Source: Eledone cirrhosa
Taxonomy: Eukaryota
Reading direction: 5' to 3'
Assembly (NCBI GenBank): GCA_964016885.1
Contig: OZ024743.1
Span: 86,242,001-86,306,000 of the forward strand
Length of the DNA: 64,000 bases
Within the stretch, counting starts at the first letter, position 1. The number at the start of each line of letters is the position of its first letter. The notes beneath the pieces were generated by a model. The model saw only the letters and a list, made by a program, of their open reading frames with translations. It did not search any database and was not told the DNA's origin. A program made the translations under genes and the position numbers. This document shows, in pieces, positions 18,250 through 44,226 of this stretch.

Positions 18250-18450
18250 ATAGGAACCAGTAAGACCCCGACAGCTGAGCTCAAGCCGTTTCGACGGCTA
18301 ATTCTGGACTGAGTCCAGAATTAGCCGTCGAAACGGCTTGAGCTCAGCTGTCGGGGTCTTACTGGTTCCTATTACCCACTCTACTACCTCAAGTATTGAG
18401 TACTTTGGTGCGTTATGGTCCACCTGGTTCCTTACCACATTTCCTTCGTT
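18250..18450 (+). mobile_element. Fold-back mini-element, family A (61-bp perfect arms plus tail) in (TA)n
   Basis: Perfect palindrome centred at 18311; right arm carries the HHR 3' half GAAAC-ggct..agct-GTC. Confidence 0.85.
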
Positions 18451-18486
18451 ATATATATATATATATATATATATATATATATATAT

Positions 18487-18932
18487 ATATGAATAAATTT
18501 AGTCCCTCATCAGTGATCTTCCAGCCTTCATTGGTATTTCATCGCTTTAAAGACCATATACCTCTAGTTGGTGCGAGCAACGGCTAAAGAAAGTCGTTGG
18601 GACACGTAAATAGGGGGAACGAGCGAGACAGTAAACAAACAAAGACGGTAATGCAACGAAAAGTGAGGAAGAAGGAGTCAAATCCCTGAAATCGATGAAC
18701 ATAACTCACTTTTCGTTGCATTACTATCTTTGTTTGTTTACTGTCTCGTTCATTCCCCCTATTTACGTGTCCCAACGACATTCTTTAGCCGTTGCTCGCA
18801 CCAACCAGAGGTATATGGTCTTTAAAGCGATGAAATACCAATGAAGGCTGGAAGATCACTGATGAAGGATTAAATTTATTCATATGTAACCCATATGCAA
18901 CCACGCAGCACGCCATGTTTTCATATTTTTCA
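18487..18932 (+). mobile_element. Fold-back element, family D
   Basis: Inverted arms ~18487-18667 and 18705-18885 with ~37-bp spacer, then tail and (TA)n. Confidence 0.8.
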
Positions 18933-19653
18933 TATATATATATATATATATATATGCCAACTCAGTCAACATGTGCATCGAAGTGTGTCTGCATACACGT
19001 ATATACCGCTGTGAGATGCTGCGTGCATTCTTTTACGTATTCCCCATATGTACGTTTTTTTTTGTATTTTTTACGTATTTTTTCACGTAATATTTCTTTG
19101 TACACTACCCGATGTACAGCATCATATGCATGTTTCTATGCACTTTCCAAATGTTTTTGTACAGTTTATTTTCATATGTGTGTGTACGTGTGTGTGTCTG
19201 TGTGTGAGTGCGTATATATATATATATATGTGTGTGTGTGTGTGCGTGTATATATGTGTGTGTGTGTGTGTATATGTACACACATGTGTATATATGTGTG
19301 TATAGGTGTGCGTGTGCATACGCACATATATATATGTGTGTGTTTGTGTGTGTATGAATAGGCCTGACTGACTGCATATGTACGCGCGTGTACATGTACG
19401 AGTGTGTTTGGGTGCGCATATATGTGTGTATGTATATACATATGTGTAAATATATGTGTATATATATAAATGTGACCATATATGGATAGATATATGTATA
19501 TATGGGGGTCCATTATGTGTACGTGTGTGCGTATGTCTGTGTATGAATGTACCTATATATAAGAGTTGAATATATGTATACAGGATGATGGCAGAGGATA
19601 GAAATTCGAAGGGCAGAGTCCAGCAGAAAGAGGATTTGCTTCGAAATCATTAG

Positions 19654-19746
19654 ACGTATCTGAGGAATTTGAGAATCCAGTTTCAGGTTCGATCCACAAA
19701 CAGATCGCACCTCAAGCTGTTCGCCGGGGAAACAATTGTAATACGT
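19654..19746 (+). ncRNA. Hammerhead ribozyme in PLE terminal repeat (~19580-19872)
   Basis: acgtat-CTGAGGA-...-GAAAC-aatt-GTA-atacgt; 6-bp stem I; palindromic stem III. Confidence 0.72.
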
Positions 19747-19937
19747 AATAAATTGTGTTCCGATGCATCACTGATTCTTCGTTTTCTATATTATCATACT
19801 CTGCCTCGAAGGAGCATAGAATACTCAACCGGCACACCGCTTATGGACGCATCCAAGCAATCTTACTACAAATATATATATATATATATATATATATATA
19901 TATATATATATATATATATATATATATATATATATAT

Positions 19938-21180
19938 AGCGAGAATCTCATTTCGGCGGGGAGAAATTAGCGAAACGCAACTTCCGTATTGTGTAGACAA
20001 GCGCTCTATGGATATGAAGATACCAGAGCTATAAACATAGGCTAAAAAGGTCATACAAACTGAGACGATGGTTAAGAAGCCATTAACCACCTGAGCCAAA
20101 AAAGCGAACAAGCTAAACGGGTCAAACAAAATAAGATATGATTGAAATAGTTACCCGGACCCTCGGGGAAGATGGAATACTCCGATATAGGGTTTCTACA
20201 ACACCTAATCAATAATACTGTCTGCTTATAAAAAATAAGCTTTTGGTATAATGATCGAACAAGGCATCGCTTTCTCAACAGGCATTTTGTTTTTCGTGCG
20301 CCAGAATCTCACAGGTTATGAAAGCACATGTGAGGTTCTAATATATATATACGTGGAGAAATATATAAAGGAGAACAAACCGTTAAAACATGTTTATTTA
20401 AAATAGCACCTACGTACGTTTCGCCCGACTGGTCTTCTCAAGGGCATAACAAATTAAAAAGCGTTCCTTACATGACCCCTAATGGGTTTTATAGCTAAGT
20501 TCATATCACAGTCCATTCTTCGTAAAAAACATGTATTGATTTTGCAGTAGGTCAAGGTAGATAACTCTAGCCGGTGTTAGAGCAATGTTCCCCAGGCTAC
20601 TTTTATCCGTTATTAGGGTTAGGGATGCAAAGTTAGTTTCCAGATATTTGTATGCTACGCCTGCCCTCCGGGGTGTTAAGGTTTGGTGCAGGGTGACCCG
20701 GTTTACGGTTCTCACACCTTATTCTTATTCCATCTGGAGTAAGAGATTTTTAAGCGGTGCGTACAGCTTATCGTCGTTTCTGCTTTACTGTTGATGAGCT
20801 CGTGGGGTGCCGTTATGATATGGTAAAGTTCCATGAGGCAAAGCTCGCATTTCCTCTTGAAATTGTACGGTGCTGCCCTGCCGACAATTTCCCAGTGTGT
20901 GGAGAAGCTGATGTTTGAGTCTTTTAATGCTGTGATGTAATTCGCGAGCGAAGTGGTGTGTCTTAGTTTCTTGTTTGCGAAAGAGTGGAGATGTGTTCGA
21001 AATCTATTTTTGAACGGCCCAGAGGTAGCCCCTATATAATGTTTAACGCTATTATGACTAGTTACGGTGCACCTATAAATAACCTTATCAGTCAGTCAGT
21101 TTCCCCTAAGGGGGCAGCGTCCCCTGTCACGGCAGTTGCAATTTCGGTCGCAGTCCCTTCTAGTTCCCTCCGTCAACCAT
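19938..21180 (-). mobile_element. PLE (Nematis-type) 3' part: GIY-YIG, 3' UTR, HHR and tail
   Basis: Minus frame CNCRDRGRCPLRGN*LTDKVIYRCTV..HYIGATSGPFKNRFRTH..CELCLME; HHR at 20406-20446. Confidence 0.8.
20406..20446 (-). ncRNA. Hammerhead ribozyme, U3-A8 core variant
   Basis: gccc-TTGAGAA-gacc-agtc-gggc-GAAAC-gtac-GTA-ggtgc. Confidence 0.6.
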
Positions 21181-41574: not shown

Positions 41575-42640
41575 AGTCCTTTTAAACATTAGGAAATTAA
41601 TCGCCATCATTTGCGATTACTGTCTGCCATCGTTTAGGAAGGCACATGATTCCATCCCTGTAGAATTCTTCTGACTTCGATGCAAATACTTTCGTCAGCT
41701 ATTGATTTAACTGGTCTTCATTGGCGAAGGTCTTTGAACGCATTGCATTGTTGGTTGAGAGAAAAAGTGATAGTCTGTAAGTGAGAGGTTGGATAAATAC
41801 GGTAGGTGAGGCAGAACTTTCCAATTTAGCTCCAGCAGCTTCTCACAGGTCATCTTTGATGTATGCAGTTGACTGTTATCATGAAGGAATCGAACAGGAG
41901 CATAGTGTGGGCGCACCTGTGTGATTTTTGCCACTAATAGTTGTTGGCAATAGATGCCAGAGATTATGTTGGTGTTCAGTGTGAGAAGCTCCTAGTGGAT
42001 GACACCTTTCCAGTCCCACCAGACGCTCAGTAGGGTCTTGTGAGGATGGAGGCCAGCCTTTGCTTGCTGTCATGGAACACACTCTTTATCAACCCACGAT
42101 TGCTTGCACTTGACATTAATGTAGAGACATCATTTTCCATCATCATTGATAATGGAATGTAACCAGTTGGTTGTGAAATGGTAGGAGAGCCGAGAAGTCG
42201 CAGCTGCTGCTCAACATTCACGATTAAGGTCAGCCAGATTGTGGGGAAGCCATTCGTCCAGCTTGGTCACGTTGCCTATTGCATGAAAGTGATTAAGGAT
42301 GGCTGTTTTCGATGCCCCAAACACTTCGGAGAGTTGACATGATGTCTGGCATGAGTCGGCTTCCAGCAACTCACACAGTTGCACATCATTGAGATCGATC
42401 CTCAAGGTTGTAATCACCAGAACAGAAGGGTGCGAATTAGGCACCCGTTCAGATATGGCGTGTGACCCAATTGCATCGTTAATGCGACGACTCGATGCTG
42501 CTGTGCTTGACCAGATTTAATGCCATAAAGAAAACAGCCATGAATAATCGATTTGGATAGATCCATGTTGCTTCACTTTTGACGGTGAAAATGAGAAATG
42601 AAAATGAAAAATGCACATAGTGTATAACAACATCACTTCT
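41575..42640 (-). mobile_element. Mariner transposase relic
   Basis: LDEWLPHNL (WVPHEL-like), FLHDN, VLPHLPYLSNLSLTDYHFF (YSPDLAPSD-like); several frameshifts. Confidence 0.85.
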
Positions 42641-42903
42641 TATATATATGTACGCATGCGCAACATCAACATTTCCAGAAAACTCTATCAGAATACCGTC
42701 TTTTGAAAAACAGCTGCAACTTTCCAATCCAACGCACACACACACACACACACACACACACACACACACACACACACACACACACACACACATATATATA
42801 TATCAGTGTGAGCGAGTGTGTGTATTTGTGCGTGTATTTTTATATACATACGTGTGTATTGTGAAATAAATAGATAGATGGACATATATATATATATATA
42901 TAT

Positions 42904-43097
42904 ATAGGAACGAGTAGGACCCCGACGGCTGAGCTCAAGCCGTTTCGACGGCTAATTCAGTCCAGAATTAGCCGTCGAAACGGCTTGAGCTCAGCCGTCG
43001 GGGTCCTACTCGTTCCTATTACCCACTTTACTACCCTAAGTATTGAGTACTTTGGTGCGTTATGGTCCACCTGCTTCCTTACCACATTTCCTTCGTT
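42904..43097 (+). mobile_element. Fold-back mini-element, family A
   Basis: 55-bp arms, 6-nt loop at 42959-42964; stem III ACGGCT/AGCCGT plus C. Confidence 0.87.
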
Positions 43098-43291
43098 ATA
43101 TATATATATATATATATATATATATATATATATATATATATATAAGGATTAAAATACTGGAGCGTGTTGGAGTTAAACACACTCTTCGTATTATAGAAAT
43201 GACAGTATAAGATATAGCTCAATGTAATTAAACAGAGCCGAAGAATTATGAAAATAAAACAAAGAAGCCTTCAATACATCAAAAGTCTTTA

Positions 43292-43335
43292 TTAGCCAAC
43301 AATGTTTCGTCCAATTAAGGACTCATCAGGGCAAT
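43292..43335 (-). ncRNA. Canonical minimal type-I hammerhead ribozyme
   Basis: gcc-CTGATGA-gtcc-ttaatt-ggac-GAAAC-att-GTT-ggc. Confidence 0.82.
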
Positions 43336-44031
43336 CAAAACCACAAGAAGTACTATCGGCCAATACAAGCCGAAAACTCCGAAGAATATGGAGTGTACAT
43401 ACACTAAAGTATTGGAAGATTATGGGTAAAAATATATAATAAAAATCACTAAGGAGGTGGATAACATTTTGAACCATATTACAAATATAGTCCAAAGCAA
43501 AAAAACTAAAGGTGGTTATATAGAGCAGGGAATTATAGTACTATATATAATACAATATAATATAATATAATATACTTGTAACAATATTAAAATTAAAATT
43601 AAAATTAAAAGGCACAATATACATATGTATATATGTACGCACACGTACGCACATATACATATACATCAATACACATTTCCATCATTAACAGCACAAATAA
43701 ACCTTATTAAGAGTTTAAATATAAATAAGCATAATAGGAATAAAAATAATAATAATACGTATATCTAATATACAGTATAACATGAAGTAATGAAATGATT
43801 AAAAGTAACACATATAATATATAATAAACTATATAATTATATAATATATAATATAATATAATAGATAATCTCCGGTTAATTTACACAAACAATATAGATG
43901 TCACAATAATACTATAATAATAATAATATAATAATATATAATATATAATTGCATGTAAGTTAACAAATCAATTCATATAGAGTTACAGAGTAGGTGAGAA
44001 AACGTTATGTATATATATATATATATATATA

Positions 44032-44226
44032 TAACGAAGGAGTTGTGACAAGGAACCCGATGGGCCATAACGCACCAGAGTACTCAATACTTAGGGTAGT
44101 AGAGTGGGTAGTAGGAAAATGTATGACCCCGACGGCAGAGCTCAAGCCGTTTCGACGGCTATTTCTGGTCCAGAAATAGCCGTCAAAACGGCTTGAGCTC
44201 TGCCGTCGGGGTCATACATTTTCCTA
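44032..44226 (-). mobile_element. Fold-back mini-element, family A (reverse orientation)
   Basis: 57-bp arms centred at 44169; tail on the left; (TA)n flanks. Confidence 0.87.

Follow-up and report, generated by a model that had tools for sequence, protein, structure and literature searches.

The genome of Eledone cirrhosa (Eukaryota; assembly GCA_964016885.1) contains many short palindromic inserts, which we describe here starting from a 64,000-nt stretch of contig OZ024743.1 (positions 86,242,001 to 86,306,000, forward strand), called the window. All six inserts of the window lie between (TA)n runs; their arms measure 46-66 bp with 0-1 mismatch, their loops 1-6 nt, and every palindrome carries a tail at one side only. 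They fall into two families, A and B, whose sequence is the leader of coding Penelope-like retroelements. Our reading is that the inserts are probably the shortest form of head-to-head insertion of two Hydra-type families, built from two primers with run-off at the transcription start. An earlier note, made from the letters of this stretch alone, had already assigned the inserts a Penelope-like origin and (TA)n targeting, on both of which we agree, but had explained the palindromes by a stall of the reverse transcriptase (RT) at a hammerhead ribozyme followed by snap-back priming. Coordinates refer to the window; element positions are counted from +1, the A at which arm ends pile up.

18253..18449, plus strand: family A hairpin; tail-less arm 18253-18310 inverted, apex a single G (18311), tailed arm 18312-18449, which begins exactly at the parental +1 (18312)
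31318..31493, plus strand: family B hairpin; tail-less arm to +10 and tailed arm from +15, the tail-less arm being the longer
35094..35258, minus strand: counterpart of the 31318 hairpin, mirrored in the opposite arm of a third Penelope-like element; no independent insertion
40859..41052, plus strand: family B hairpin of the CUGAAGA-core subfamily; tailed arm from +3, junction overlap 4 nt
42907..43096, plus strand: family A hairpin of another subfamily; tailed arm from +1 (42959), tail-less arm ending at +7
44034..44224, minus strand: family A hairpin of a third subfamily; tail-less arm to +2, tailed arm from +4

The larger element that holds two of these hairpins repeats the same build at another scale:

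30558..36100, plus strand: third, coding Penelope-like element; hairpin build at large scale, (TA)n on both sides

It comprises a decayed ORF (open reading frame) from RT to GIY-YIG at about 32680-34777, an inverted 5'-truncated arm at 30558-32679 and a tail of about 110 bp at one end only; the arms are 99.4% identical over 1,110 bp. The hairpins at 31318 and 35094 are a passenger in its 3' untranslated region (UTR), and because they were duplicated with its inverted arms we count them as one event.

Abundance and authenticity of the hairpins

Exact pattern searches of the 3.0-Gb genome yielded 62,608 matches to a family A 19-mer, 16,390 exact family A hairpins and 30,612 matches to a family B 27-mer; the reversed control gave 0 in each case. 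Palindrome-plus-tail inserts in (TA)n are real, abundant and far above chance. As an unbiased sample we took the first 100 of 39,672 tail matches. An adjacent inverted partner was present in 79 of them, and its 3' end fell at +61 in 54 of the 79; two partners were set aside (one self-match, one partner with a tail of its own), which left 77 pairs.

The two arms of one copy differ by 1.9-3.2%, and the 68 family A hairpins that we compared have 63 distinct junction strings, in keeping with the earlier proposal that the palindrome is made anew at each insertion. The junctions carry 0-4 nt overlaps, short templated inserts or poly-A, as expected of end-joining. In fold-back DNA transposons and miniature inverted-repeat transposable elements (MITEs) a conserved interior is enclosed by terminal inverted repeats that are symmetric and fixed. 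With such self-propagating units copied whole, the hairpins have in common their high copy number, TA targets and fixed outer ends, yet their outer ends are asymmetric, their junctions mostly differ, the same junctions recur in different subfamilies and their sequence is the leader of an RT-coding element, which makes this origin highly improbable. The one-sided tail, the variable apex and the RT-coding parent speak against fixed MITE-type termini, the contrary case named in the earlier note.

In contigs from public runs, every bin of both hairpins is covered and head-to-head joints are numerous; among the contig pieces listed, none extends across these exact apices by 31 letters either way. 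A fold-back read artefact is unlikely, because flanks differ, the tail is one-sided, the arms diverge and one copy rides inside a larger element.

At L086, L090-L092, L098 and L107 a family B fragment is fixed within another, itself amplified repeat, which gives these loci near-identical flanks.

Coding parents

Long copies of family A continue into a frame of 710 aa, which encodes RT, a CxCX5C linker and a GIY-YIG domain (locus L047). After the frame follow a 1.2-kb 3' UTR, the ribozyme and the tail, with an inverted copy truncated on its 5' side opposite; the unit spans about 2490-6100 of this locus (~3.6 kb). L046 is built alike with the tail on the short arm, and L218 is a family B coding parent with inverted arm. 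All three have the pseudo-long terminal repeat (pLTR) formed by a partial tandem, the inverted truncated copy and the one-sided tail, so the Penelope-like origin claimed earlier is borne out by coding parents. The tail runs into the ORF start at 41 places genome-wide. The order in the parents is promoter-like region, +1, 3' part of the ribozyme, site 2 (+61), tail, site 1, ORF. Of the 30 loci that were retrieved, 14 have the promoter-like region, ribozyme, tail and ORF in one unbroken stretch, as does the B locus L124, and for this reason we regard the hairpin sequence as the leader of the coding element.

Parents carry a single ORF with RT and C-terminal GIY-YIG, as read from motifs in translations and alignment; Pfam and PDB sequence searches with the 710-aa L047 product returned zero matches. 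The available text of PMC8557442 describes the Hydra clade as Penelope-like elements with a C-terminal endonuclease (EN+), the motifs RWK and DKT, (TA)n targets, a hammerhead and a size generally <3 kb. RWR (for RWK) and DKT are present in L047 and RWR in L124; CxCX5C is found without CCHH and with late CxxC and CxH, and (TA)n insertion and hammerhead, both Hydra-clade traits, are present in families A and B. With ~3.6 kb, including the 1.2-kb 3' UTR, L047 exceeds the published size, which is a tendency and no strict criterion. Judged by motifs against the part of that description accessible to us, the parents of A and B are two Hydra-type Penelope-like families. An assignment to Neptune elements was dropped, as the motifs favour Hydra.

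Hammerhead ribozyme

Parents of family B hold a predicted complete type I hammerhead with a 6-bp stem I, cleavage after GUA and U-U at 10.1/11.1; in its alignment 98.1% of 156 cells are paired and two of six stem I pairs show two-sided changes. In family A the core is of the U3-A8 type in 26 of 36 parent copies, with a long stem II and a 5-bp stem I; 88.8% of 294 cells are paired, and there are four two-sided pairs, mostly from one divergent row. We consider the type I hammerhead predicted in the parents to be real, although Rfam gave zero hammerhead matches on the six inserts and on 7/7 parent loci.

The earlier description of the ribozyme thus stood in part. Parents with stem I and core exist in both families, and the tailed arm does carry the 3' half of the hammerhead, but cleavage after GUC does not apply to B. 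The CUGANGA core is seen in the CUGAAGA subfamily of the 40859 insert and not in most A parents. At 40859 itself the apex had been placed on the CT of CTGAAGA; the tailed arm there keeps the whole core, together with stems II and III and 4 bp of stem I.

The only Rfam Hammerhead_1 match lies at 43291-43335 on the minus strand (24.5 bits, E 0.15). It is a canonical-looking type I hammerhead in a TA-flanked element adjoining the 42907 insert.

Start and stop positions of the arms

One arm starts at each of two sites: arm 3' ends fall at +61 (site 2) and about +138 (site 1) in A and at +60-67 (site 2) and about +134 (site 1) in B. They mostly lie just before a TA or TAT of the parent, which could pair with a (TA)n primer. 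The opposite arm ends overall pile up at +1 to +9. In the tail sample the further-reaching end of the pair was at -6..+9 in 62 of 79 cases, and only 10 of 100 tailed arms extended beyond -50. Of the 250 A arms analysed, 116 reach -3..+3 and 76 come to an end within it (0.109 per base), compared with 0.001-0.003 per base at +19..+70 and 0.001-0.004 at -9..-198; in the bystander subset of A (34 arms) the figure is 12/12. For family B, 51 of 79 arms stop at -3..+3, 30 loci having been chosen for starting at +1. Bystander B arms that pass -3 never stop before -100 (0/5). Apex positions are hence strongly non-uniform, as had been predicted. The pile-up sits within stem II in A, where the earlier note had put it, and at the first base of stem I in B; there most apices are upstream of the core, at the 5' strand of stem I.

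With two primers, the same ends might arise if RT stalled at RNA structure in read-through RNA, at the extended stem II or the folded, possibly protein-bound ribozyme. The 3' strand of stem II and that of a predicted distal hairpin do both lie within the pile-up of A, which has sub-peaks at +5, +7 and +9, and bystander B arm ends spread over core and stem II. However, the GC-rich stem III is crossed with almost no stopping (the 0.001-0.003 per base given above), and the boundary of B is the 5' edge of stem I, reached after the whole ribozyme has been copied, with 0/28 passing arms ending at -4..-20. A stretch of 1.47 Mb gave 193 palindromes, and in those of other hammerhead-bearing families the apex lies 40-150 nt away from the core. 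A stall would also leave it to coincidence that both families have a TATA or AT-rich box at a distance of ~30 nt, as described below. A stall is for these reasons unlikely, and the earlier claim that the ribozyme sets the apex fits poorly with its different place in A and B and with the scarce stopping in stem III.

At L038, L151 and other loci, the arm that ends at +1 is followed at once by a run of A/T 13-20 nt long.

A candidate transcription start at +1

Common to A and B, the pile-up is situated ~30 nt below a TATA or AT-rich box and upstream of tail and ORF. For B, 12 parents with diverged spacers, which had been selected by the TATA motif, were aligned; 11 of them have TATAAAT at 29-33 nt above +1, and TATAAATA matches 7/8 of TATAWAAR (motif match only). 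A has an AT-rich box 29-32 nt above +1 and an initiator-like TYAGT at +1, and it matches the consensus TCAKTY, as given in the available part of PMC4581360, at 5-6/6 with A at +1 (motif match only). CCAAT stands further upstream in the promoter-like block. For mouse, the accessible text of PMC1779604 reports a functional TATA spacing of -32 to -29. By these motifs +1 is likely to be the transcription start of the element.

An extra G marks full-length L1 5' junctions in the portion of PMC11702581 open to us. Among 99 solo A copies bordering on (TA)n, 20 have before their +1 a G that is found neither in the parent nor in the flanking DNA. The window contains one solo copy of this kind:

26508..26702, minus strand: solo copy of a divergent A subfamily; begins at +1 (26699) behind one G; parent context from L064

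An RNA 5' end at +1 could also result from processing, by the ribozyme or a nuclease. The boundary is sharp, the cap-related G gives no separation, and a few arms end at the predicted cleavage site (3/250 A arms at +41..+43; 4/145 B arms at +46). These ends form no clear excess, three of the four B cases are one tandem locus, and the few ends are explicable by microhomology. Since +1 moreover lies 41-45 nt upstream of the hammerhead cleavage site, processing is a quite improbable source of the end.

Two primers versus snap-back

Under snap-back, one cDNA (complementary DNA) stops, folds and primes its own second strand, a route related to the self-priming described in the accessible text of PMC3846280. 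Since a copy of the tail-less strand cannot gain a tail, this route never allows the tailed arm to end short of its partner. The 68 A hairpins do not obey this rule: the tailed arm is longer in 31, the tail-less arm in 27, and 10 are equal. In the 77 pairs of the tail sample the tail-less arm was longer by at least 10 nt in 22 raw calls; after 9 of the 22 had been set aside as internal deletions or end-calling errors, the tail-less arm was longer in 13 and the tailed arm in 6. Some pairs have no common sequence at all (L265, L301 and L302; L009, L010, L061 and L063), and at L203, L207 and L210 a short arm whose end is at +1/+2 adjoins an arm that starts at ~+45 to +60 and bears the ORF.

Near-identity of the arms, their common subfamily and the many junctions with 1-4 nt overlaps are what snap-back would also produce, and it could explain some of the pairs with a longer tailed arm. 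Both arms are of one subfamily in 65 of 68 A pairs (expected 0.29) and in 25 of 30 B pairs (expected 0.33), where about 9 of the 30 B hairpin rows have no matching parent and are unreliable. Rare alleles, in contrast, are common to both arms in one case and confined to one arm in 35. The substitutions common to the arms, which had been taken as private to each copy, are thus present but are subfamily markers, because the type agrees on both arms while the rare alleles do not. Such agreement would fit two cDNAs from one RNA or one source locus. Furthermore, hairpins of different subfamilies can have one and the same junction, as can hairpins with the tail on opposite sides. Non-overlapping pairs contradict snap-back as a general route, and taken with the arm lengths and the rare alleles they leave it very unlikely and speak against the priming step of the earlier note. 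We consider it highly likely that the head-to-head arms originate from two primers.

Proposed insertion mechanism

The protein would recognize its binding region in the leader no less readily than in the 3' copy. The two cut strands of the (TA)n target would then prime RT at two internal sites in the mRNA 5' leader, and both cDNAs, derived from one RNA or one source locus, would run off the 5' end of the transcript, one some 60 nt and the other some 140 nt long. Host end-joining would unite their 3' ends after trimming. For copies extending beyond +1, the source would be the 3' repeat of a read-through RNA. The ribozyme would be a bystander: an A transcript from +1 would start within stem II and could not form a complete hammerhead fold, which only read-through RNA from the ORF could do.

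The hairpin products are without the upstream promoter-like region. For the Penelope element of D. virilis, the available text of PMC2377424 describes a TATA-less internal promoter, whereas the promoter here would lie upstream and outside the copy, which is why run-off copies would be dead. A product of this kind would be a dead end, remade from coding parents every time. The new class of self-propagating non-autonomous elements envisaged earlier is not borne out, as the hairpins have neither the promoter-like region nor a fixed junction. We lean somewhat, at slightly better than even chances, towards the stronger statement that most insertions of these families are abortive 'double strong-stop' products in which both cDNAs ran off the cap, the hairpins recording the transcription start.

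Several observations count against run-off of two cDNAs at +1. The peak of B is inflated by the 30 loci selected for a +1 start, and 29 bystander B arms end across -1..+25, with 3/8 at -3..+3 and 9/22 at +9..+18. In both families ends scatter several bases downstream of +1, so that trimming or scattered starts are needed. The conservation of the TATA motif in B is partly circular, since the parents were selected by it, and one B parent has a spacing of 24 nt; the box at -30 in A is a poor, variable TATA. The +1 of A also falls in the 3' strand of the predicted distal hairpin of read-through RNA. The extra G at +1 is not significantly separated from a control at +7 (8/60; p = 0.29), and larger G excesses (87/100, 76/100 and 37/94) are confounded by letters from the other arm or from stem I. 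Tailed arms stopped more often after site 2 (11 vs 4 of the 77 curated), a difference that is not significant (p = 0.10).

Relation to known systems

The comparisons in this section refer to the accessible portions of the cited papers. PMC8557442 and PMC3846280 describe insertions of endonuclease-bearing Penelope-like elements with inverted pLTR and one-sided tail. They resemble ours in the inverted 5'-truncated copy beside a direct copy, the tail at one end and the junction palindromes, and TATA and initiator (Inr)-like motifs have been noted in the published pLTR. The inserts are a variant of this known insertion type; architecture, clade and ribozyme variants are already known. Different from the published cases, the arms here are only about 60 and 140 bp and 77 of 100 tail copies have this form, the tail is about 75 bp instead of 30-40, and junctions are concentrated at a single site. 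Self-priming on an antisense template is the explanation of junction palindromes in PMC3846280, while the arm asymmetry found here argues for two primers. With the Hydra clade our parents have in common RWR (for RWK), DKT, CxCX5C without CCHH, the late CxxC/CxH, the hammerhead and (TA)n, and they differ from it in length.

The closest experimental parallel to the two arm starts is the Poseidon element of Anolis. In vitro, both strands of the target are cut by its protein and then extended, with RT beginning at two internal sites on either border of the tail; mutating the ribozyme leaves insertion unchanged (PMC11167929). Poseidon is of another clade, however, and its start sites lie inside the ORF; neither inverted insertions nor run-off at the transcription start are treated there. 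PMC4209133 reports minimal hammerheads of metazoan Penelope-like elements and opposite-strand pairs 100-700 bp apart. Type I, a short helix I, a long helix II with a 5' unpaired base and, in family A, the U3-A8 variant are matching features, but most A hairpins are without the 5' half of the core and stem II of the A parent also holds the promoter-like region. In L1 twin priming (PMC11702581) a second primer from the other target strand likewise gives an inverted segment; L1 arms abut with 1-10 bp overlap or loss, whereas here both cDNAs copy one same 60 nt from fixed start sites. The animal non-LTR retrozyme consists of tandem units, each with a complete hammerhead (10.64898/2026.07.22.740005), unlike the single, head-to-head inserts described here.

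How tandem and inverted Penelope-like insertions are built is named as open in PMC8557442. Our search, which left aside most subscription papers and supplements, found no published two-primer or run-off model for Penelope palindromes, and within the same limit as to subscription papers no paper tying a hairpin apex to a transcription start. Families A and B offer a large natural data set that separates insertion models and links the start sites seen in vitro (PMC11167929) to two arms in vivo, and an exact transcription start is predicted for the element. This would mean that near-perfect 60-bp hairpins, by-products unable to spread alone, can accumulate by the tens of thousands in an animal genome. 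If the proposed mechanism is true, tens of thousands of hairpins record a transcription start at near-base resolution, and head-to-head Penelope palindromes arise from two primers rather than by self-priming.

Further features

A short box is common to the tails of both families:

18393..18403, plus strand: 11-nt box common to A and B tails, at +82/+83; also at 31442, 35135, 41000, 43040 and 44080

The box starts with GT and stands 62-64 nt ahead of a pyrimidine-rich AG that precedes the parental ORF; the interval is +82..+145 in L193 and +83..+144 in L124, a candidate short intron.

Beside the first insert, a hairpin at 18484-18888 belongs with related sequences at 8707-9550 and 37273-38816 to a further Penelope-type family, which has hairpins and tandem-inverted structures and a CUGAUGA core near its end. 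This hairpin has its apex (18667-18705) ~150 nt upstream of that core. The stretches 36174-36539, 51253-51605 and 40460-40543 belong to another family associated with TA, in which the CUGAUGA hammerhead core is complete; the 40460 copy begins within the core. At 1880-2644 a partial tandem and an inverted arm are flanked by TA runs, with a CUGAUGA core at 2143 on the minus strand, which is a typical Penelope-type build.

Outside the window, locus L219 holds an uninterrupted 388-codon frame (3920-5083, minus strand) between opposite-strand family B cores at 1071 and 9530; it presumably encodes an alpha-tubulin-like product. Broken reading frames at 3730-6959 of the window resemble what we take to be a Helitron Rep/PIF1 helicase. 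A large 27/30-bp tandem array, followed by an ACC-rich tract, occupies 54363-61426 and is possibly a threonine-rich, mucin-like exon.

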